From: a virus
Taxonomy: Duplodnaviria; Heunggongvirae; Uroviricota; Caudoviricetes
Strand: one strand, 5' to 3'
DNA: 12,204 nucleotides
Virus record (IMG/VR): IMGVR_UViG_2667528155_000014
The notes beneath the pieces are model-generated. The model had not been told where the DNA came from and searched no databases. It worked only from the letters and a program-made list of their open reading frames with translations. Positions 2,045 to 12,204 of this stretch are shown here, piece by piece (position 1 is the stretch's first letter; each line of letters starts with the position of its first letter). A program made the translations under genes and the position numbers.

Positions 2045-2308
2045 TGAGTTGTGCTTATCCACTAACTGAAACTTGACAGTAAAAAGCTGCGGGTGATTTT
2101 TGTGGAAATATCAATGTGCAAGATGAATGGAAGTATAACTAAGTTATATCAGTGTTTAAATGCAGGCGAAGAGTAATAAAGCATATGATTAAGGTCAAAT
2201 TACGTCGCTGAAAAAGTATTGCAATTTGAGCCATAAACTGCTTCAATCACTGTATGCTTCGCAAAGCTGTATCGCGAGGTCAAGGATGCAGAACATGAAC
2301 ACCAGATG

Positions 2309-2339
2309 AACCCGCCACGGTGCGGGTTTTGTCGTTTTT
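2309..2339 (+). terminator. rho-independent terminator
   Basis: Stem AACCCGC / GCGGGTT with 6-nt loop CACGGT, followed by TTTTGTCGTTTTT. Confidence 0.6.
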
Positions 2340-2360
2340 AAAAGACGGCTTCAGGTGGAC

Positions 2361-2435
2361 CTACTTGCCAAAAATCAGTGCGAAGATGAGCGCAATAACA
2401 CAGATTGCGATAGCCATTTTTTCATGACACGGCAT
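2361..2435 (-). CDS. tiny hydrophobic peptide (24 aa MPCHEKMAIAICVIALIFALIFGK; 18 aa from the internal ATG at 2417)
   Basis: Minus-strand ORF below the ORF-track size cutoff; GGAG 8 nt upstream of the ATG at 2435; almost entirely hydrophobic; sits between two terminators. Confidence 0.2.
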   Translation of the reverse strand: MPCHEKMAIAICVIALIFALIFGK

Positions 2436-2450
2436 TCTCAGTTCTCCGTA

Positions 2451-2479
2451 TAAAAAAGGGCCCGCGTCAGATAGCGGGC
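2451..2479 (-). terminator. rho-independent terminator, minus-strand orientation
   Basis: Stem GCCCGC / GCGGGC (8-nt loop); on the minus strand it is followed by a T6-7 tract (plus-strand TAAAAAAGG). Confidence 0.45.
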
Positions 2480-2647
2480 AAAATCACAATTGGAAAAGGT
2501 AAGAGGCTTAAGTGCTTCATAGGGGGAAGCCTGAGGACCGTAGTAATTTCTTCATAAACCTATCAAGTTCGTATCTGCAATTGTTTAAGTTCTGTTTAAT
2601 TTCATATGCGCAGATTCACATTTTGGCATTTCAGCAAAATAAATATC

Positions 2648-2711
2648 TTGTCAGCCGCTGTCTGCGGGTAATAGGTTCCCCCCGTTGCAGTGAATCCCAC
2701 TAGCGTAGGGG
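2648..2711 (+). promoter_or_regulatory. promoter-leader module copy A (TTGTCA -35 at 2648-2653, ATAGGT -10 at 2671-2676, conserved leader hairpin 2686-2711)
   Basis: sigma70-like hexamers 17 bp apart with CTGCGG in the spacer; leader TGCAGTGAATCCCACTAGCGTAGGGG is homologous to copies B and C; candidate PR'-type late promoter. Confidence 0.4.
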
Positions 2712-2803
2712 CATCGTCAGGTTTCGCTTCCACTGTTGACGTTGCGGTTAATACCATCGGGAGGCACCCGGCACTGCGGCAAATTGAAAACGGCGGTAAT
2801 TCA

Positions 2804-2830
2804 GGGCTCACTTCGGTGAGCCCTTTTTCA
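2804..2830 (+). terminator. rho-independent terminator (tR'-like, ~120 nt downstream of module A start)
   Basis: Perfect 8-bp stem GGGCTCAC / GTGAGCCC with TTCG tetraloop, followed by TTTTT. Confidence 0.7.
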
Positions 2831-2853
2831 TTTCGCCGACATGATAAAAAGCT

Positions 2854-2915
2854 TGATCTAAAGCACCTGCCGTTTATACGTTACCTCCTGCGGTGAATCT
2901 CACCAGCGTGAGGGG
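2854..2915 (+). promoter_or_regulatory. promoter-leader module copy B (TTGATC -35, ATACGT -10, leader TGCGGTGAATCTCACCAGCGTGAGGGG at 2889-2915)
   Basis: Same architecture as copy A; CTGCCG in spacer; leader contains overlapping inverted repeats GGTGA-ATC-TCACC and CTCAC-CAGC-GTGAG. Confidence 0.4.
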
Positions 2916-3402
2916 TGTGGCACTATTCATTCTGCCAGTATGTATTGCACCACACCATGGATACGTTTCACCGGGTTGCGACCGGCACCGCACTCATATC
3001 GGGTCGTGGAGATAGATTATTCGGGCTCTACTTTTAAATTGGTCATTGATGTGATTTCTGAGCGGGAAAATGCAGAATAAATACAGAACTGCTAATGCTC
3101 TAAAGGCATATTTACGCAGTATCAGATTTACAACGAATCAGGTATTCTTAATTAGCATCATTCTGTTGGTCATCGGATTATTAGGGGCAATAAAACTTAG
3201 TGTATGGGCTCTATTGAGTTGAACAATAGTTACATGCTAATAAGATTTATCGCTTTATCTCCTTTTTTGGCGTAATAATTCAGGTAGGGTGGGTGTTAAC
3301 AGTCTATTTAACTTGTTTGTGATTTACAGCCGAACAGATTGACTGTTGTAGCCTGCTGGTGATTTGTTTTTCTCATTCCTTTTTTACTTGGAGTGATGAA
3401 CA

Positions 3403-3837
3403 ATGATTACTATCGTACTGAATAAAATTAACCAGATCTTATCCCATGCTGACTTTGGTAAGTTCCTGTTAAGACTTGCTGTTGGTGGGCTGATGTTATT
3501 TCATGGTTTGCATAAGCTCTTTGCAGGAGTTGAAGGTATTAGCGGCATGCTTATAGCTAACGGCTTACCTGGATTTTTCGCATACGGAGCAATTGTGGGA
3601 GAGGTTTTGGCTCCAGGCCTGATTATTCTTGGGGTTCTTACTCGCCCCGCAGCACTGTTGCTGGCTTTTACAATGATTGTGGCCTGGCTTCTGGTGGGGG
3701 TAGAGGAAACATGGATGCTCGAAAGTACTGGCGCGTGGGGAATAGAAAGCCTGGTGTATTTTTTTGTTGGCTCTCTGTCAGTTGCATTACTGGGGGCAGG
3801 GCGTTATTCGGTCGCCAGGGGAACTGTATGGAATTAG
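3403..3837 (+). CDS. DoxX-family integral membrane protein (moron/cargo gene)
   Basis: 144 aa, four hydrophobic segments, LMLFHGLHKL-type N-terminal helix typical of DoxX proteins; GGAG 9 nt upstream of ATG; AT-rich upstream region. Confidence 0.6.
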   Translation: MITIVLNKINQILSHADFGKFLLRLAVGGLMLFHGLHKLFAGVEGISGMLIANGLPGFFAYGAIVGEVLAPGLIILGVLTRPAALLLAFTMIVAWLLVGVEETWMLESTGAWGIESLVYFFVGSLSVALLGAGRYSVARGTVWN

Positions 3838-3886
3838 TAAACCTGGATGGATGAATACACATTTAATGAACAGGGATGATGACGTT

Positions 3887-3913
3887 GAAAAAAGCCCGTC
3901 ATACAGAACGGGC
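3887..3913 (-). terminator. hairpin with T-tract on the minus strand (possible minus-oriented terminator)
   Basis: Stem GCCCGT / ACGGGC with 8-nt loop; plus strand has A6 upstream of the stem, so the U-tract is on the minus-strand transcript only. Confidence 0.3.
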
Positions 3914-4076
3914 AAAATCACACATAAGCAGAAAATAATTGAGGTCGCTTCATGGGAGAAGCAGAAAGAACATAATGATTTTTTTCTGAACCGGTCAAGT
4001 GTGATGTCTTAGCTTTTTGAAGGTTTAATTCTCCGTGCGCAGTTTCGCATTTTGAGTAATTTATTTGGAAGAGGCC

Positions 4077-4140
4077 TTGCCTGCCAGAATCTGCGGACGA
4101 TAAATTTTTCTCATTGCGGTGAATCTCACTAGCGTTGAGG
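4077..4140 (+). promoter_or_regulatory. promoter-leader module copy C (TTGCCT -35 at 4077-4082, ATAAAT -10 at 4100-4105, leader 4115-4140), likely promoter of the tRNA/lysis transcript
   Basis: Best-matching hexamers of the three copies, 17-bp spacer with CTGCGG; leader TGCGGTGAATCTCACTAGCGTTGAGG; a shared CCGGCACCGCA box at 4211-4223 directly abuts the tRNA. Confidence 0.45.
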
Positions 4141-4228
4141 CTTGCTGAAATGGAGAATTTTCGCGAAGCAGATTGTGTATCAGCGCGCAATCTACCGGAA
4201 TAATAGCGGTCCGGCACCGCAGCGTCAT

Positions 4229-4305
4229 GGCCCTTTAGCTCAGTTGGTCAGAGCGTGCGACTCATAATCGCCAGGTCGCTGGTTCAAGTCCAGCAAGGGC
4301 CACCA
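4229..4305 (+). tRNA. tRNA-Ile2 (anticodon CAU, lysidine type; by anticodon alone could also be tRNA-Met)
   Basis: Full cloverleaf: acceptor GGCCCTT/AAGGGCC, D-arm GCTC...GAGC, anticodon loop CTCATAA, T-arm GCTGG-TTCAAGT-CCAGC, encoded CCA. T-arm and anticodon arm match my recollection of E. coli ileX; a prophage copy would be ileZ-like. Confidence 0.85.
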
Positions 4306-4308
4306 AAA

Positions 4309-4384
<76 letters not shown>

Positions 4385-4649
4385 GTTTTGAATGGGCGCT
4401 GCTTTTTGCAAAATTGCTGTGTAAAAATACTGACCTTCCGGTCCAGCGCTCATCCAAAAGCACTCCGTTAAAATCCTGGCAACCATGGGTGGTTTGTTGG
4501 ATGGAGTGCCTCCGAATAATAAAACTCGCGTTATAAAGGCTGCGCATTTGCGTGGCCTTTTTCGTATTCAGATCTGCAGCATACTCAGCCCGGAAGGCTG
4601 AATTTTTTCACCAGTACACAGCACCATCCGGAAACCGGGGGTGAGGTAT

Positions 4650-4985
4650 ATGAAAATGAATGACAAAAACCCTGAATTCTGGGCGGCGGTTTTGACCGGA
4701 CTCAAAAATGCGTGGCCCCAGTTACTGGGGGCATCAATGGCCGGACTCATTGCTTATGCCCGCCTGATATACGATGGCGTCACGCGAAAAAATAAATGGC
4801 TTGAGGGCGTCCTTTGTGGCGCCCTTTCTTTATGTATCACCAGTGCGCTGGATGCGTTTGGCCTTCCTGTATCGATATCACCCTTTGTCGGTGGCGTGAT
4901 TGGCTTCGTCGGCGTGGATAAATTACGTGAAATTGCCATCAGTGCGCTTAAAAAACGGGCAGGGATAAATGATGAGAACCAGTAA
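4650..4985 (+). CDS. S: class I holin, lambda S-like, with dual-start motif (Met-Lys-Met)
   Basis: MKMNDKNPEF... starts at ATG 4650 and ATG 4656 behind GGGGGTGAGG; three hydrophobic segments; C-terminus KKRAGINDENQ resembles lambda S KKAGVEDGRNQ as recalled. Confidence 0.85.
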   Translation: MKMNDKNPEFWAAVLTGLKNAWPQLLGASMAGLIAYARLIYDGVTRKNKWLEGVLCGALSLCITSALDAFGLPVSISPFVGGVIGFVGVDKLREIAISALKKRAGINDENQ

Positions 4986-5391
4986 AATTTCTCGCGGGAT
5001 CCGCAACAACAACCCCGGCAATATCCGGTGGGGTGATGAGTGGCAGGGCCTGGTACCCAAAGCACAGCGCACTGATAAATCATTCTGCCAGTTCACTACG
5101 CCTGAGTATGGTATCCGGGCGATGATCATCATCCTGCGCAATTACCAGCGTAAGCACGGGCTGAACACGGTTACCGGCATTATTAAACGCTGGGCGCCGC
5201 CGAACGAGAACAACACGCTGGCGTATATCAACAACGTGGCTCAGGCGACGGGTGTTACTCCCGACCAGCGCATTGATACCAGTGACAGTCGTTTCATGAT
5301 GAAGCTGTTGCAGGCCATTATTAAGCACGAGAACGGTAGCCAGCCATACAGCTTTGATACGTTTATCCGCGCGCTCGAACTGGCGGGTTAA
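4969..5391 (+). CDS. putative endolysin (small peptidoglycan hydrolase, family not resolved; N-terminal RNNNPGNIRWG motif)
   Basis: 140 aa, no TM segment, start overlaps the holin stop. Assignment rests mainly on position between holin and Rz/Rz1. Confidence 0.55.
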   Translation: MMRTSKISRGIRNNNPGNIRWGDEWQGLVPKAQRTDKSFCQFTTPEYGIRAMIIILRNYQRKHGLNTVTGIIKRWAPPNENNTLAYINNVAQATGVTPDQRIDTSDSRFMMKLLQAIIKHENGSQPYSFDTFIRALELAG

Positions 5392-5413
5392 GTGAGCGTG
5401 TATTAAAAGCGAA

Positions 5414-5450
5414 AACCCCGATTGCGGCAAACAGTCGGGGTTTTCTGTTT
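5414..5450 (+). terminator. rho-independent terminator (T-rich on both sides, probably bidirectional) between endolysin and spanin genes
   Basis: 8-bp stem AACCCCGA / TCGGGGTT with 13-nt loop, followed by TTTTCTGTTT; plus-strand AAAAGCGAAAA upstream gives a U-tract for the minus strand too. Confidence 0.55.
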
Positions 5451-5539
5451 CTGCACCTTGAGGAAAGCAAGGGAGAAATTATGTATAGGGAGGTGTGTTC
5501 CCTGTGAGGAAGTATAAACGAATTCTGTTGAGGTTGACT

Positions 5540-5677
5540 ATGAAAAACGGCCTTGAAATAGATGCTCCGTTAACAAAAGAAATCAGTAGTGCTACGGCAT
5601 GGGCTATACGGGCTGTGGCGTTGACGGTTGTGCTGTATGGTATTGCGCGCCTGATTGTGGCGATTCGCTGGTGGTAG
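5540..5677 (+). CDS. small protein with C-terminal transmembrane segment (45 aa), unknown function
   Basis: ATG at 5540 preceded by GAGG at 6-nt spacing; hydrophobic AWAIRAVALTVVLYGIARLIVAI; stop 5 nt before the Rz start. Below the usual size threshold, hence low confidence. Confidence 0.3.
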   Translation: MKNGLEIDAPLTKEISSATAWAIRAVALTVVLYGIARLIVAIRWW

Positions 5678-5681
5678 AGCC

Positions 5682-6254
5682 ATGAACCGTATAACGATTA
5701 TCGCAATAATTTCGTTCCTGGTTGTGGTTGTTATGCTGGTATTCAGCCGGGCCGACCTTGCTGTATCAGAAAGTGATAACCGGATCCTTCGCAATGATAA
5801 CGCGCTACAGGGGCAGGTTATCGCCACTCAGGTTTTCAACTTTAACCGGTTTAATCAGGTTGCTGATAATACCAGCCGCCTTAACTCCCTGATTGATGCC
5901 GGTTCCGAAAAAACAGTTATTGAATACCGGGAGATACTCCGTCGTGAAAAAACCTGTGATTTGCCTGTTCCTGCTGATATCGCTGACGGGCTGCTCGACC
6001 ACGCGTACCGTTTACGTGCCAGCGCAATGTACCCCGATCCCCGGAACGCTGATGCAGCCGGTGGTGACACCATTACCGCCAGCTCTCTGACATACTGCCA
6101 GGCTGTTCTCTGGATCGGGCCGCTGCTGGCTACTATTGAGAAGGCGAATAACCAACTGACTGGTATCAGTAAAATTGAGTTGGAACGCAAGCAACTAGGA
6201 AAAATTATGGAGTTAAAGGACAGAGACGTTAAGGTTGTAAATCATTTTAAATGA
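5682..6254 (+). CDS. Rz: Rz-like inner-membrane spanin (i-spanin)
   Basis: MNRITIIAIISFLVVVVMLVF N-terminal signal-anchor like lambda Rz (MSRVTAIISALVICIIV), then a long charged/helical periplasmic domain; contains an embedded +1-frame lipoprotein ORF. Confidence 0.8.
   Translation: MNRITIIAIISFLVVVVMLVFSRADLAVSESDNRILRNDNALQGQVIATQVFNFNRFNQVADNTSRLNSLIDAGSEKTVIEYREILRREKTCDLPVPADIADGLLDHAYRLRASAMYPDPRNADAAGGDTITASSLTYCQAVLWIGPLLATIEKANNQLTGISKIELERKQLGKIMELKDRDVKVVNHFK
5944..6090 (+). CDS. Rz1: Rz1-like outer-membrane lipoprotein spanin (o-spanin), embedded in Rz in the +1 frame; GTG start (alternative in-frame ATG at 5893)
   Basis: VKKPVICLFLLISLTGC lipobox (LTGC) followed by a proline-rich mature region (TPIPGTLMQPVVTPLPPAL); GGGAGA 9 nt upstream of GTG 5944; entirely inside Rz. 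Confidence 0.75.
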   Translation: MKKPVICLFLLISLTGCSTTRTVYVPAQCTPIPGTLMQPVVTPLPPAL

Positions 6255-6373
6255 ATATGAATGTGATAAATGTAAGTTGGGCTGAATAGTTTTCAGCTCT
6301 ACATCATGTAATGATATGTATCTCGATAATTAAATTATTTTTTATAGATATATTTGTAGTAAGTGTGGATTTG

Positions 6374-6405
6374 AAGGGTATCTTAATAAAAATACCCTTT
6401 TCTGT
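6374..6405 (+). terminator. possible terminator hairpin downstream of Rz
   Basis: 8-bp stem AAGGGTAT / ATACCCTT with 10-nt AT-rich loop, followed by TTTCTGT; weak U-tract. Confidence 0.3.
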
Positions 6406-6433
6406 CGAATGTTTACAAACGATAATTTTTATC

Positions 6434-7342
6434 CTATTGAAGGAAGTTCCGAGCCCGAAGAAAGTTTTGAGCAATCAGGTCGCCAATTGGATTTAAAACA
6501 TATGAATTAAAGTCATTTATGGTCGATACGCCAAATGCATCTAGAGTTAACTTTAAAGCAGGAAATGTTTCAAAGAACATCTCATCGCTTTCAAAGCTGG
6601 TGATTCCAGTCCTTTTTCCAAGTAGGTCTTGATAGTTTGTTATGTATTGCTTGTCTGTGAAGATAACGCCTTTTAAGCTGAGGAGATCAATGTTTATTTT
6701 TCTCAAAGACTCTATTTTATCTAAGAATTTAATGTAATCAATATCATAGCGAGCATAGTATTCTTTGTGGGCTGAATGGTTTTGCTCTACGGTAAAGCCA
6801 ATTAATCCAAAGTGAGTTTCATTTCTTTCAGCAAGAGCTGTCATGTTAATACCGTTTCGTATCTTATTTATGTTTCTGAGGTAATATATTAGAGAGAGAA
6901 ATTTAATGTCGTTTGTTGTTAATTTAGATGTCACCTCAAGAGCGTGATCTATAACTATACTATCCTCTTCTTCTTCAGTTTGAATTTTAGAAACGATTAG
7001 CTCTTTAAGTAACTCCGATTTTTCATCAAATCCTTTTCGAGCCACCTGAGTTACAGCTTGGTTCATCGAATATTGAATGTCAGGGTCGGATAATTTCTCT
7101 TTTAATTTATGATCAAGATCACTAGAAAGTTTAGCTGCAATCTGATTACCAAATTCTATCGCTCGTTGGTTTACAAGTTTATATGCTTCCTCTTTTAAAG
7201 AAGCCATTTGTGCTTGAACTACTAATTCACAGATAGTAACTACTTCAGTAGTAGTATTACCAATGATAGCATCACCGGTTACTTGGATTGCGGTAGAACC
7301 ATCTCCGACATGTTGACCCGACTTATGATCGAAAAGACTCAT
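6434..7342 (-). CDS. hypothetical 302-aa protein, AT-rich cargo gene of unknown function (candidate phage-exclusion/defence component)
   Basis: Long clean ORF antisense to the late operon; AAGGA 6 nt upstream of ATG 7342; ATGA overlap with the upstream small ORF; no family recognised by inspection. Confidence 0.7.
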   Translation of the reverse strand: MSLFDHKSGQHVGDGSTAIQVTGDAIIGNTTTEVVTICELVVQAQMASLKEEAYKLVNQRAIEFGNQIAAKLSSDLDHKLKEKLSDPDIQYSMNQAVTQVARKGFDEKSELLKELIVSKIQTEEEEDSIVIDHALEVTSKLTTNDIKFLSLIYYLRNINKIRNGINMTALAERNETHFGLIGFTVEQNHSAHKEYYARYDIDYIKFLDKIESLRKINIDLLSLKGVIFTDKQYITNYQDLLGKRTGITSFESDEMFFETFPALKLTLDAFGVSTINDFNSYVLNPIGDLIAQNFLRARNFLQ

Positions 7343-7584
7343 TTTTTGTCCTTTTCATTAATGGTTAAATTACCACTGACTTGTATTCCTGAAGAGTTAT
7401 TACCAATCACTTGGCTTATAGAGGATGACTTCTTCTTGTCACTTATTAAGTTGGCTACAGCAGTTAGAAAAGCCCCTAAGCTGACTAAGAAAGCCAGTAG
7501 AGAAGCCAGTCCATGATGCTGGTATGCCTGATACCCGAATCCGCATGTTGCAACGAACGAAATTAGACAGATTAACTTTCTCAC
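7339..7584 (-). CDS. small two-TM membrane protein (81 aa, GTG start), coupled to the 302-aa ORF
   Basis: Two hydrophobic segments followed by a Ser/Lys-rich tail with repeated xQVxGN motif; stop overlaps the downstream ATG; GTG start with weak GAGAG upstream, so start and reality are less certain. Confidence 0.45.
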   Translation of the reverse strand: MRKLICLISFVATCGFGYQAYQHHGLASLLAFLVSLGAFLTAVANLISDKKKSSSISQVIGNNSSGIQVSGNLTINEKDKK

Positions 7585-7596
7585 GCGTCATATCTC

Positions 7597-7624
7597 TCTA
7601 TAGGTTAAATGGCACTAAAAGCAA
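7597..7624 (-). promoter_or_regulatory. candidate sigma70 promoter for the minus-strand cassette (TTGCTT-16 bp-TATAGA on the minus strand)
   Basis: Hexamers read on the minus strand; predicted start leaves only a few nt before the GTG, so the transcript may be near-leaderless. Confidence 0.3.
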
Positions 7625-7630
7625 CGCAGG

Positions 7631-7654
7631 ATGTGCTTTGCTCTGAGCACATCA
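7631..7654. promoter_or_regulatory. perfect inverted repeat GATGTGCT-N8-AGCACATC immediately upstream of the candidate -35 (possible operator/activator site)
   Basis: 8-bp perfect palindromic arms with 8-bp spacer at about -42 to -65 relative to the minus-strand promoter. Confidence 0.3.
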
Positions 7655-7933
7655 TTGATTCATCTTACTAATATCTATTAATTAAAAGATAAAACTAGGG
7701 GGTTTATGGTAAAACAGGACTGGACAGTGCTGCAACACCAGTCTCTCGCCGACTATGCCAAAACGGGTATATCACCAAAAGAGTGGTGCTAAGCAGGGAG
7801 ACGGATTAACACATCTGCACGTTTAGGTGAAGAGTGGACTGACCTGATACAGGTATATGATCCTGTTCTAAGCATTAATTAGTATAATCGATATTCATTC
7901 TCATTTGATGGGGCCTGTTATGCGATCCAACCT

Positions 7934-8010
7934 GTTACGGGGCGGCGACCGTGTGGATTCTCTCTATTTATGAATATTGTCCACTATTTGCCATTTCCGT
8001 TTTTCTCTCC
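7934..8010. other. lambda-type cos region: cosN-like 12-mer GGGCGGCGACCG at 7940-7951 with flanking cosQ-like and cosB(R3)-like sequence
   Basis: GTTACGGGGCGGCGACC is identical to the lambda cohesive-end junction as I recall it (lambda GGGCGGCGACCT); downstream CTATTTATGAA and TTTCCGTTTTTCT align with lambda left-end sequence at the same spacing. Confidence 0.6.
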
Positions 8011-8140
8011 GAGTACAACATGATTTCTATCCAACAAACAGGGCAACGCCGATGCCAGCACGTGCTAAACGTCCATGCCGACAAGGGACGTGCGGCAATC
8101 ATAGTCGCATTGCACGCGTATAAATAACAAGGAGGGGGGA

Positions 8141-8374
8141 ATGCGCCTCACTGTATTAGATGATGATCCCGGCAGGAAGATTGATATCAGAGTAGAGCGG
8201 TACACTGTCTATCTTGATGGTGTTGATGTTAAGCGCGCGCTCACTGCTGATGATGAGAAAGGTGAAGTAATCGCTGTTGCATGTGATGAATATGGCCACG
8301 CGACCATAGAGAACGGCGAAGTGAAGAGGCAGATGCTTTACGGCTTAGTGAGGATTGAACGGTGTCCGCACTGA
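8141..8374 (+). CDS. hypothetical small protein (77 aa) at the head of the packaging module
   Basis: Strong Shine-Dalgarno AAGGAGGGGGG before the ATG; acidic protein; not recognised. Confidence 0.6.
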   Translation: MRLTVLDDDPGRKIDIRVERYTVYLDGVDVKRALTADDEKGEVIAVACDEYGHATIENGEVKRQMLYGLVRIERCPH

Positions 8375-8392
8375 TTTACAGGTAATGGTGGT

Positions 8393-8746
8393 ATGAACAA
8401 AGAACCGCGCATCTATGACAGCAGATGGGGTAAAGCCCGCCAGGCATTCCTGCGCGAACATCCTTTATGCATTATGTGTCAGGCACTGGGAAGGATTGAG
8501 CTGGCGACTGTGGTCGATCATATCACGCCACACAGGTTGAAAGATGCTCTCATAACAGGAAATCCCGCAGATATCTCCCGGGCGCAAAAGCTGTTCTGGG
8601 ACAGAGGAAACTGGCAAGGGTTATGTAAACCCCATCACGACTCAACCAAACAGCGTATGGAAAAGAGCGGGAGAATGACTGGCTGTGATGCTGATGGGAT
8701 CCCGCTTGACCCCGATTCACACTGGAACAGGGGGAGGGGCGGGTAA
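8393..8746 (+). CDS. phage HNH endonuclease (terminase-associated)
   Basis: HNH motif: CIMCQ ... DHITPH ... N ... CKPHHD; GGTGG before ATG; located directly upstream of terS/terL as in HK97-like packaging modules. Confidence 0.85.
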   Translation: MNKEPRIYDSRWGKARQAFLREHPLCIMCQALGRIELATVVDHITPHRLKDALITGNPADISRAQKLFWDRGNWQGLCKPHHDSTKQRMEKSGRMTGCDADGIPLDPDSHWNRGRGG

Positions 8747-8960
8747 AAACTTAAATACCTTTGCAGTAAATGACCCCCGCTTCTCCTTTCTGTGTACAAC
8801 CGCGAAATGAAAAGTTTTTTTTTGGCTTGTTTTTTGGTTAAAAAACAACCTCGAATTACTTCAGTGTATTGATATATAAGAAAATGATGAAAACAGCAAA
8901 GCTACTGTATTAAAATACATATGTGATTTAATGCAGTAGTTTTATTGGGAGGTGCCCGGC

Positions 8961-9425
8961 ATGGCAGGGAGACGTCCGAAACCGTCCCATCTGAAAGCGG
9001 TAACCGGCAACCCAAGCAAGCGAAAACTCAATGACAAAGAGCCGTTGCCCTCACGCGAAATACCGTCGCCGCCCCCGCACCTGACCGACTGGGGAAAGGT
9101 TGCCTGGGGAAAACTGACCGTACTGCTGGATGGGATGGGAGTGATGACGGTAGCTGACGGACTGGCACTGGAGCGCCTCTGTGATATCTACGCCGATATC
9201 CTTCAGTTACGTGACACTGTCGCAGTGGAAGGCAGAACCTATACGGTACAGACAGATGGTGGATTTCTGATAAAACCGCATCCTGCTGTCGCCATGCTGG
9301 CAGACGCTGACCGCCGTTTTAAAAGTTATCTGGTTGAATTCGGTCTGACCCCGGCCGCCAGAACGAAGGTAAAAGTTGATGGTGGAGAAAAAGACGAAGA
9401 TCCGTTCAACCAGTTCTTCGGTTGA
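8961..9425 (+). CDS. terminase small subunit, P27 family
   Basis: N-terminus MAGRRPKPSHLKAVTGNPSKRKLN and HLTDWGKVAW are typical of P27-family TerS; GGGAGG 8 nt upstream of ATG 8961 (the ORF track begins at an in-frame GTG at 8952). Confidence 0.85.
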   Translation: MAGRRPKPSHLKAVTGNPSKRKLNDKEPLPSREIPSPPPHLTDWGKVAWGKLTVLLDGMGVMTVADGLALERLCDIYADILQLRDTVAVEGRTYTVQTDGGFLIKPHPAVAMLADADRRFKSYLVEFGLTPAARTKVKVDGGEKDEDPFNQFFG

Positions 9426-11118
9426 TCCAGCCACGCAGTATGCAATGGATGTGGGTACCGGTAAGAAAATTGCCGGACCAGATATTCGTAATGCCTGTAA
9501 ACGTCATTTGCGCGATCTTGAATTTGGGCATAAGCGCGGCTTGTCATGGGATACAGAAGCAGCACTACGCGCGATTGATTTTTTTGCGAAGGTACTGAAG
9601 CTTAACGGTGGGGAGTTTGAAGGAGAACCCTTCATTCTGTTGCCCTGGCAGTGCTTTATTGTGGGATCCATTTTTGGATGGAAACGGCGGAACGGGGCGC
9701 GCCGCTTTCGTACCGCTTATGTGGAATCAGGCAAGGGATCAGGTAAATCCCCTCTGGCGGCAGGGGTTGGCCTGTACTGCATGACTGCGGATAAGGAGCC
9801 CAGGGCCGAGGTGTATGCTGCGGCGACGAAAAAAGACCAGGCTATGGTGTTGTTTCGTGATGCGGTGGCGATGGTGGATCAATCACCGGCGCTGGCACAA
9901 CGTATCAGCAAATCAGGAGGGGCGGGCAAAGAGTGGAATCTGGCATTTTTGCAGACGGGATCATTTTTCCGCCCGATTAGTTCTGATGACGGGCAGTCAG
10001 GCCCACGACCACATTGTGCCTTGATTGATGAAATCCATGAGCACAAAAGCAACATTGTGGTTGAAATGATGCGGGCTGGTACAAAAGGCAGGCGTCAGGC
10101 GCTGATTTTCATGATAACTAACAGTGGTCATGACAAAACCAGCGTCTGCTATGACTATCACCGGTACGGACAAAAAGTCGCAGCCGGACAACTGGATAAT
10201 GATGCATTTTTCTCTTTCATTTGTTCCCTTGATGAAAGAGATGATCCCTTCCAGGATGAATCCTGCTGGCCAAAAGCGAACCCTTCCATGGGGCATACAT
10301 TTGAGGACAGTTATTTACGGGAACAGGTTGATGATGCCCGCGGTATTCCGTCCAAAGAGAGCATTGTACGACGCCTTAATTTCTGTCAGTGGGTTGATGC
10401 TGAAAATCCATGGATTAGCAGTGATGCCTGGATGGCATGCGAAAAAAAATTCGATCCTGAAGAGTTCCGGGGGCAGATTTGTTACGGAGGACTGGATCTT
10501 TCCGGCAAAAGAGATCTCACTTCTCTTTCTCTGTATTTCCCTGGAAGCAATGCGTTGCTTACTGAGTTCTGGACGCCGCGCGATACACTTTTCGATCGCG
10601 CAAGGGTGGATCGTGTTCCTTATGACGTCTGGCTGAAGAAGGGGTATGTACACGCGCCGCCAGGTGCTGCAATTGATTATGGCTTTGTGGCAAAACGTCT
10701 GGCAACACTTGCTGCAATGTTCGACATCCGTAAGGTGGCGTTCGACAGTTACCACATTGATTACCTTTTGCCGGAACTGGATGATGAAGGTGTAAACATC
10801 CCACTGATTCCGCACGGCCAGGGATTCGGCAAGTCCGCCAAATCCGGACTGTGGATGCCGCATTCCATTGAGTTGTTTGAACAACTCATCATGGATAAAA
10901 AAATAAACATCGTACTCAACCCCTGCCTTCGCTGGTGTGCGGCCAATGCCGTTATAGAGGAGGACAAAAGCGGAAACCGTGTATTCAGCAAGCGTCGCAG
11001 CAATGGGCGTATTGATGGCGTGGTGTCCGGTGCCATGGCAATTGGTGTTGCAGGATCCTGTGAAGATGACGGCGACGGCGATATCAGTGATTTCTTTAAT
11101 GACCCCATATTTATGTGA
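9379..11118 (+). CDS. terminase large subunit (Terminase_1/HK97-like)
   Basis: ~580 aa; conserved N-terminal TQYAMDVGTGKKIAG...CKRHLRDLE, Walker A-like SGKGSGKS, and a nuclease domain with acidic residues; start overlaps the terS end (ATG 9379; alternative ATG 9445 would remove conserved residues). Confidence 0.9.
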   Translation: MVEKKTKIRSTSSSVDPATQYAMDVGTGKKIAGPDIRNACKRHLRDLEFGHKRGLSWDTEAALRAIDFFAKVLKLNGGEFEGEPFILLPWQCFIVGSIFGWKRRNGARRFRTAYVESGKGSGKSPLAAGVGLYCMTADKEPRAEVYAAATKKDQAMVLFRDAVAMVDQSPALAQRISKSGGAGKEWNLAFLQTGSFFRPISSDDGQSGPRPHCALIDEIHEHKSNIVVEMMRAGTKGRRQALIFMITNSGHDKTSVCYDYHRYGQKVAAGQLDNDAFFSFICSLDERDDPFQDESCWPKANPSMGHTFEDSYLREQVDDARGIPSKESIVRRLNFCQWVDAENPWISSDAWMACEKKFDPEEFRGQICYGGLDLSGKRDLTSLSLYFPGSNALLTEFWTPRDTLFDRARVDRVPYDVWLKKGYVHAPPGAAIDYGFVAKRLATLAAMFDIRKVAFDSYHIDYLLPELDDEGVNIPLIPHGQGFGKSAKSGLWMPHSIELFEQLIMDKKINIVLNPCLRWCAANAVIEEDKSGNRVFSKRRSNGRIDGVVSGAMAIGVAGSCEDDGDGDISDFFNDPIFM

Positions 11119-11123
11119 AGCCT

Positions 11124-12204
<1,081 letters not shown>

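Follow-up and report, generated by a model that had tools for sequence, protein, structure and literature searches.

The stretch of DNA analysed here (the window) comprises the 12,204 nucleotides of the IMG/VR virus record IMGVR_UViG_2667528155_000014 (Caudoviricetes) and represents a late-region segment of a lambdoid prophage. Its minus strand carries a cassette of two genes found in the list of open reading frames (ORFs), a small gene of 81 aa with a GTG start (7339..7584) and a large gene of 302 aa with an ATG start (6434..7342). The stop codon of the first and the start codon of the second overlap by 4 bp as ATGA (minus-strand sequence GACAAAAAATGAGTC). The cassette lies between the Rz/Rz1 genes and a 77-aa plus-strand ORF, with HNH and terminase genes beyond the latter, and the guanine-cytosine (GC) content is 0.30–0.38 over approximately 6150–7500 versus 0.46–0.55 in the Rz and HNH/terminase flanks. 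The ORF list and the GC profile thus agree with the original prediction, made from the sequence alone, which described two overlapping AT-rich genes antisense to the late operon and suggested an exclusion or defence module. The genes are real and strictly paired, they share a partner-matched motif, and they form a mobile module with a layout that mirrors the Bab/Agp pair of Escherichia coli. We give about an even chance to the cassette being an abortive-infection or exclusion module, in which the large protein, a member of the Vpar_1526 family, acts as a sensor and activates the two-helix small protein through beta-assembly between the motif copies.

The motif covers 20 residues. When the profiles of the two proteins were aligned with hhalign, residues 57–76 of the small protein (effector-side copy, SQVIGNNSSGIQVSGNLTIN; 7357..7416, minus strand) matched residues 9–28 of the large protein (sensor-side copy, GQHVGDGSTAIQVTGDAIIG; 7259..7318, minus strand) with a probability of 91.5% and an E-value of 8.7e-7. 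The recurrence of a short repeat in both proteins, earlier read from the letters, was thus borne out at the profile level; pairwise BLASTP of the two window proteins left the shared motif undetected, and profiles alone reveal it. Within each copy, a 10-residue pseudo-repeat of the form Q-phi-x-G-(N/D) occurs twice. The tail consensus across the small-protein homologues is SQxIGxNSSGIQVGGNxTINEKDKK and the N-terminal consensus of the large protein MSLFD.KSGQxVGDGSxAIQVxGDAxxGN, the sensor-side motif being located ahead of the NCBIfam domain model (start at residue 28). In the AlphaFold2 (AF2) models, all of which are monomers, both copies are disordered, the sensor-side copy having a predicted local distance difference test (pLDDT) value of about 30. 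The strict pattern was present within the first 60 residues of 90 of the 131 full-length family representatives, and several others had degenerate variants.

Among 28 motif copies, the most frequent residues were G (18.2%), I (12.7%), S (11%), N (10.7%), Q (10.4%) and V (8.0%), while K (2.7%), L (1.8%) and P (0%) were depleted. Ungapped alignment of partner motifs gave 6–12 identities over the 20 positions in 14 distinct pairs. In nine divergent pairs, true partners were more similar than non-partners (mean BLOSUM62 39.6 vs 29.2; exact permutation p = 0.0008, uncontrolled for shared lineage composition). Also lineage-specific variants match between partners: IQAGND is present in both L025 proteins and IQAG.(N/D)IH in both L029 proteins. 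The partner similarity together with these variants argues for direct homotypic contact of the motif copies.

The two genes occur as a conserved unit at different loci, as had been anticipated. When hidden Markov models built from the homologue alignments were run on six-frame ORFs of the loci collected to that point, each of the 29 enterobacterial loci was seen to have a two-helix small ORF that ends where the large gene begins. An upstream two-helix ORF of 74–92 aa with the tail motif was found also in six of six relatives at approximately 25% identity, some of them outside phages. It has 85 aa in L030 (tail SQNITSGSNGIQAGRNIHM), where two tandem Vpar_1526 paralogues follow, 92 aa in L031 (tail SQNIGDNSFGIQANGDVSV; a 1.4-kb contig), 83 aa in L032 (tail TQTVSGSSTGIQVGRDLNI; a 2-kb contig) and 74 aa in L034 (tail SQNVGANGIGIQAGRDVKI; phage genes not called nearby). 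In the remaining two loci the small ORF is uncalled: L035, in the chromosome of Acinetobacter seifertii (tail IQKVSDNSIGIQGKNITGLT), and L036, in an element with ParA, DUF932 and integrase genes and, again, two tandem paralogues (tail SQKVSRGSTGIQVGRDFDI). In both tandem arrangements (L029/L030, 5001-6778; L036, 5121-6882) one small gene is followed by the two paralogues, each having its own variant of the N-terminal motif; such loci may combine two sensors with one common effector.

The small protein includes two hydrophobic stretches, residues 4–18 and 25–45 (Kyte-Doolittle 2.0–2.1), which had been recognised from the sequence and which AF2 models as a helical hairpin (H2–23 and H26–56) followed by a disordered tail (residues 57–81, pLDDT <50). 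Basic K/R residues are located at the N-terminus and after helix 2; their presence at both ends of the hairpin indicates an N-in/C-in topology with a cytoplasmic C-terminal tail, and the protein is predicted to be a two-helix membrane hairpin of this orientation. It is proposed to be the effector of the pair. In the 26 small-protein homologues the sequence GFGYQA in helix 1 is invariant. The homologous genes typically start with GTG or TTG, non-ATG starts thus being conserved, and the small gene was uncalled in the E. coli assemblies examined. The exact small-protein sequence was absent from a collection of 15 billion proteins, and it has therefore never been called as a gene. No significant Pfam match was obtained for it, and its best PHROG was phrog_27656 (E-value 2.5e-8), the function of which is unannotated.

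For the large protein the original prediction recognised no family. This did not hold, as the protein belongs to LPO_1073/Vpar_1526, though that family is uncharacterised: NCBIfam model NF045477 matched residues 28–295 with 105 bits against a cut-off of 45 (E-value 5e-30), and in the precomputed annotation PF28206 'Vpar_1526' was present on all 66 large-protein homologues, including the 99%-identical P0001. These homologues extend down to 40% identity and represent the genera Escherichia, Klebsiella, Enterobacter, Leclercia, Citrobacter, Serratia, Pantoea and Cronobacter; a further word-index protein search produced mostly the same enterobacterial set and Acinetobacter. The exact 302-aa protein has been deposited from E. 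coli (e.g. EHW2741444.1), and near-identical copies are present in Citrobacter and Enterobacter. In a profile search of 1.84 billion representatives (threshold E ≤ 1e-3), 1,479 clusters (50% identity) matched, which sets a lower limit to the size of the family. Most of these matches were approximately 280–290 aa long and aligned only over the N-half (profile positions ~5–160), their C-halves being unrelated. A full-text search on the family names found no functional study. Virion or metabolic homology, which the original prediction had named as a point to be checked, was not found in domain-library scans or structure comparison.

The large protein is divided into a conserved helical N-domain (residues 30–160; 6863..7255, minus strand), recognised in alignment A1 by the motifs ADPDIQY, VARKG and KSELLKELIVSK, and a variable C-terminal domain (residues 161–302; 6437..6862, minus strand) with a confidently modelled fold (pLDDT >90). 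In every comparison within the enterobacterial group, the C-half exceeded the N-half 2.5–2.9-fold in nonsynonymous divergence (dN). For the window and L014, dN was 0.062 in the N-domain and 0.167 in the C-half. The dN/dS ratio of the whole large gene was 0.046 in this pair; synonymous divergence (dS) was saturated in most comparisons, and formal ratios were obtained for few pairs only. The small gene had a dN of 0.18–0.37 with dS saturated. Both genes are under purifying selection. The large protein is proposed to be a cytoplasmic all-alpha sensor or regulator, with the C-terminal domain proposed as the part responsible for specificity or trigger recognition.

Two longer family members, P0173 and P0235, consist of an N-terminal HNH-like domain, then the motif and then the Vpar_1526 body. 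The HNH-like domain resembles HNH_2 below the threshold (19.4 bits, cut-off 21). P0173 is located directly after an integrase, with no small ORF there. The simplest reading of an HNH-like fusion lacking the small ORF is that a nuclease has taken over from the membrane protein as effector, and this swap suggests a sensing or regulatory role for the Vpar_1526 body. In addition, a 313-aa HNH_2-domain protein is encoded approximately 0.5 kb upstream of the small gene in L029/L030 (3350-4291). With this nearby gene and the direct fusions, the HNH association of the family is recurrent.

The same pairing, shared-motif and prophage-location evidence would fit also a constitutive membrane complex for non-suicidal superinfection exclusion, the motif being an ordinary beta-hairpin or zipper docking element and the complex blocking DNA entry or another early step. 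Membrane factors of superinfection exclusion, such as P22 SieA and HK97 gp15, are common in prophages. Vpar_1526 itself has a '+' in three columns of the subcellular-fractionation table in a study of the outer-membrane proteome of Veillonella, which is a hint that the protein may be expressed, and possibly associated with the membrane, in the absence of infection. A disordered, low-complexity and amyloid-biased motif would, however, be unusual as a stable docking interface, and the HNH-like nuclease fusion suits an unleashed effector better than an entry blocker, which makes this alternative unlikely.

Many different lambdoid prophages carry the cassette in antisense orientation in the interval from lysis to terminase genes, in line with the cargo slot suggested earlier. 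The modules of these prophages are mutually non-homologous: their holins belong to families 2_1, 3_1 and 3_3, their terminases to Terminase_2 or Terminase_4 + HNH, and their portals to differing families. The E. coli locus L001 is 98–99.5% identical to the window over 1-1945, 2211-4305 and 6025-8391 (99.5% in the last block) and replaces 4306-6024 by another lysis module (holin_2 / Phage_lysozyme / DUF2514); the junction of this swap is inside the 3' end of Rz. L013 shares only 6025-7912 with the window. The upstream non-coding region (7585..7912, minus strand) is 99.4–99.5% identical in L001 and L013, while their other flanks differ, and the block shared amid differing flanks indicates that the cassette and its upstream region move as a unit. 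In L014, where the cassette is 82% identical, DNA homology extends over 6205-7553, which marks the limits of the module.

Members of the family also adjoin integrases and occur in integrative elements. Neither megablast against 50,697 phage records nor tblastn against phages found a match to the cassette. A scan of 100,044 species-representative genomes with alignment A1 found a single locus, the diverse alignment A3 being too divergent for locus scanning. This sole locus, L012 (3159-4049), is in a metagenome-assembled genome of Enterobacterales, and the ORFs near it are NifH-like and IS3 OrfA-like instead of phage genes. In the viral contig L027 an additional 220-aa Cys-rich ORF (MSWTCPYCQHKAV; 7301-7963) is located between the cassette and the Rz gene, which suggests that the slot gathers several cargo genes.

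In phage lambda the slot from Rz to cos holds bor on the opposite strand, and Bor is a single outer-membrane lipoprotein conferring serum resistance. The cassette shares the slot and the antisense orientation with bor, while sequence and architecture are unrelated. It is very unlikely that the pair is a bor-like host-fitness moron unrelated to phages, such as an envelope-stress, serum-resistance or colonisation factor. The precedent of bor, the AT-rich and seemingly horizontally acquired island and the membrane component are what such a moron would share with the pair. Signal peptide, lipobox and surface-protein features are nevertheless lacking from the pair and the large partner is predicted to be cytoplasmic; moreover, the HNH fusions and integrase neighbours point to nucleic-acid conflict, and the defence scores given below are high.

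The rest of the window is arranged as a lambdoid late region on the plus strand. A DUF1133/Q-like antiterminator gene is followed by a gene of a DoxX-family membrane protein of 144 aa (3403-3837), located between the antiterminator and the holin; DoxX is further late-region cargo, carried also by the relatives L001 and L008. A match to the STnc100 small RNA family (2657-2834; Rfam, 66 bits) and tRNA-Met (4229-4305), with a partial tRNA-like match downstream of it (4316-4373), were also detected. The lysis genes consist of holin (4641-4985), endolysin (4969-5391) and an Rz-like i-spanin (5655-6254), in which an Rz1-like lipoprotein ORF with an LLISLTGC lipobox (5893-6090) is embedded in the +1 frame. 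An AT-rich spacer (6255..6433, minus strand, GC 0.30) separates the stop of the large gene from the convergent Rz-like stop. Beyond the 77-aa ORF, on the far side of the cassette from Rz, are HNH (8393-8746), terS (8952-9425) and terL (9376-11118). The portal ORF (11115-11972) has 285 aa, while an intact relative has 441 aa; it is cut by a fragment of an IS3-family transposase (11976-12182, minus strand) directly after it. With the portal ORF shortened and the IS3 fragment adjoining, the prophage is probably defective, yet the cassette is retained.

The location beside holin, endolysin and spanin genes raises the question of a role in the life of the prophage itself, either as a toxin-antitoxin or addiction pair, with which the overlapping genes agree in organisation, or as a holin/antiholin-like regulator of lysis timing. 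The two-helix membrane protein gave a weak match to the holin family phrog_217 (E-value 0.0038, 18 bits), and significant matches to holin or toxin-antitoxin families were absent among the families searched. The pair is on the strand opposite to holin, endolysin and Rz; its transcription runs counter to the late operon, so that it and the lysis genes are not expressed together. In the Acinetobacter chromosome and the integrative element the pair is away from lysis genes, and in the window it is kept in a prophage with a portal gene cut by an insertion sequence. A role of this kind is therefore considered improbable.

The upstream region (7585..7912) presumably holds a promoter and operator. 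It includes a perfect 8-bp inverted repeat (GATGTGCT-N8-AGCACATC) at approximately 7640-7663, about 60 nt upstream of the GTG of the small ORF; this repeat may serve as an operator or terminator. When the surroundings of the cassette were scanned for promoters and terminators, the results were at or below the shuffled expectation, and no Rfam matches were found inside the cassette.

Outside evidence for defence comes from DefensePredictor: in its Tables S5 and S10, the label 'Predicted novel defense gene' is given to two LPO_1073/Vpar_1526 proteins of E. coli (PMC13092281). WP_000490525.1 (285 aa) has log-odds of 9.3–10.4 and WP_025380464.1 (270 aa) log-odds of 8.86 (PMC13092281). The pairing, the slot and these scores agree with the exclusion or defence module of the original prediction, and from them we infer an anti-phage role; the RexA/RexB analogy used to support that prediction was not upheld. 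The validated two-gene membrane system DS-13 ('TMO1') was also considered on account of its size, but its TM-HEPN-like sequences of 183 and 233 aa are unrelated to the cassette (PMC13092281).

If the cassette is an abortive-infection or exclusion module, the pair would be expressed from the strand opposite to the late operon. The 302-aa protein would act as the sensor in the cytoplasm, its helical core being conserved and its C-terminal domain evolving fast and serving for recognition, and the 81-aa protein would reside in the inner membrane as a hairpin with its tail facing the cytoplasm. At rest both motif copies would be unstructured, the motif being the part through which the two proteins would communicate. 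An incoming phage would trigger the sensor, and its N-terminal motifs would assemble into a beta-sheet, possibly of an amyloid-like cross-beta type. The membrane-protein tails would be recruited to, or templated by, this assembly; the hairpins would then cluster and the membrane would be breached, and the infected cell would be killed or arrested before phage release. The assignment of sensor and executor and the damage to the membrane are likewise inferred, and amyloid-type templating between the motif copies is put forward as a tentative possibility.

Several observations weigh against this reading. No experimental phenotype exists for any member of the family, and predictor scores are not one; both accessions and the family name are absent from the 94 tested transcription units of Table S6 (PMC13092281). 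Both proteins matched none of the families of PADLOC-DB v2.0.0, RexAB included, at E-values up to 1. According to Pfam and NCBIfam the large protein has no NTPase, repeat or recognisable oligomerising or ligand-binding domain, and no structural relatives of its all-alpha fold were found in the PDB. The HNH-fused members keep the motif without a separate partner, so that it could simply contribute to how the sensor itself folds or assembles. The permutation test on partner similarity, as stated above, leaves shared lineage composition in place. No convincing promoter was found around the cassette, the best sigma-70 matches in a lax manual scan being weak (8/12). In 5,426 complete E. coli genomes the cassette had no megablast match, and with the single locus among the representative genomes this indicates that the element is rare.

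The match to RHIM is likewise below threshold. RHIM, PP and BASS3 have a common core G-phi-Q-phi-G (10.1101/2020.01.06.895854), to which the small-protein consensus NSSGIQVGGN or GIQIGGN can be compared, and the tetrad IQVG/IQIG is present in most small-protein homologues. In the window, the sequence is GIQVSGN in the small protein and AIQVTGD in the sensor; unlike in RHIM, the fifth core position is thus not glycine. The tail of a Klebsiella orthologue matched RHIM (PF12721) with 13.5 bits against a cut-off of 20 (E-value 0.056), this being one orthologue only. The window motif peptides had no RHIM match, and no other Pfam families were found among the eight motif peptides searched.

Extended to the whole Vpar_1526 family, the proposal would be that a widespread immune system, so far undescribed, has this family as its sensor half and that in this system a RHIM-like amyloid motif passes the signal to a hairpin death effector of approximately 80 residues. 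This extension is rather doubtful. The range of the family covers Enterobacterales and Acinetobacter, and also Legionella and Veillonella as judged from the locus tags in the family name. If the extension is true, the effector would be the smallest known death effector, amyloid- or prion-type signalling would extend to unicellular Gram-negative bacteria and their prophages, and partner-specific motif variants would insulate co-resident systems from each other. For the cassette, confirmation of the proposed mechanism would mean a second, far more widespread case of motif-templated immune signalling in bacteria after Bab/Agp, built from different parts. A large uncharacterised family, already flagged as defensive by machine learning, would thereby obtain a function, and a systematically unannotated partner gene of approximately 80 codons with a non-ATG start would come to light. 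With 1.15 kb, two proteins and a 20-residue interface, the system would be minimal and tractable, and a model for the nucleation of beta-assembly by a sensor, for killing by a two-helix hairpin and for the evolution of partner specificity in motifs. A link through the RHIM-type G-phi-Q-phi-G core would also bear on the evolutionary origin of necroptosis-style signalling.

Among the known systems, RexA/RexB is a prophage pair expressed in lysogens, with a membrane component and a cytoplasmic sensor, and proposed to act by membrane depolarisation. RexB has four membrane helices and the Rex genes are located in the immunity region, whereas the cassette encodes two helices and occupies a late-region cargo slot. 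PADLOC showed no sequence relation between them, and we know of no terminal motif common to RexA and RexB. As an analogue RexA/RexB, which the original prediction had chosen, thus gives way to Bab/Agp.

Bacterial amyloid signalling motifs are approximately 20–25 residues long, enriched in Q/N/G/V/I and depleted of K/P/L (Dyrka et al. 2020, 10.1101/2020.01.06.895854). The cassette resembles fungal HET-S/NWD2 and the bacterial Bell/NLR pairs of BASS1-10 in its adjacent or overlapping genes, in having the motif at the C-terminus of the effector and at the N-terminus of the receptor, in the pseudo-repeats, and in the length and Q/N/G/V/I-rich composition of the motif. 'All-in-one' fusions beside two-gene variants are likewise found in both. 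The folded domains differ. HET-S/NWD2 and the BASS pairs have STAND NTPases of the NACHT or NB-ARC type, equipped with repeat sensors, as receptors, and HeLo, Bell or enzymatic domains as effectors; in the cassette neither a STAND NTPase or oligomerising receptor nor a HeLo/Hell/Bell bundle or enzymatic effector was found. The BASS pairs are reported mainly from multicellular bacteria and are rare in Proteobacteria (10.1101/2020.01.06.895854), unlike the present pair, which is common in Enterobacterales and Acinetobacter.

The one system that came up in a literature search on amyloid, anti-phage and membrane gene pairs was Bab/Agp (BASS11), from a prophage of E. coli ECOR25 (Ibarlosa et al., 10.1101/2024.11.07.622273). 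There, T5 infection leads Agp to convert the BASS11 motif of Bab, and abortive infection follows; proline beta-breakers in either motif abolish it (10.1101/2024.11.07.622273). The parts from which the two systems are built are different: Bab is a soluble 109-aa Bell-like helical bundle with a sheathed N-terminal helix, while the small protein here is an 81-aa integral hairpin of two helices, and Agp has the architecture TPR-GreA/B-C-PIN, while the 302-aa Vpar_1526 protein stands in its place and no TPR, GreA/B or PIN domain was detected in the window proteins with Pfam and NCBIfam. The BASS11 residues given in the text of that study, I87-G88-S89-V90-x-Q92 ... D99-N100, do not fit the register of the motif here (phi-G-x-x-S-x-x-phi-Q), the full BASS11 sequence being given in figures only. 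Because of the unrelated folded domains and the apparent misfit in BASS11 spacing, the cassette is likened to these systems in its workings and is not classed as BASS11, RHIM or NLR-based. Function has been demonstrated for Bab/Agp, and the likeness of the cassette is one of layout and motif composition. Both are adjacent gene pairs in an E. coli prophage, and in both, an effector that is small and targets the membrane carries at its C-terminus a motif of approximately 20 residues, which is matched at the N-terminus of a larger sensor. The motif is G/N/Q-rich in both, and in Bab/Agp it has been shown to be needed for signalling (10.1101/2024.11.07.622273).

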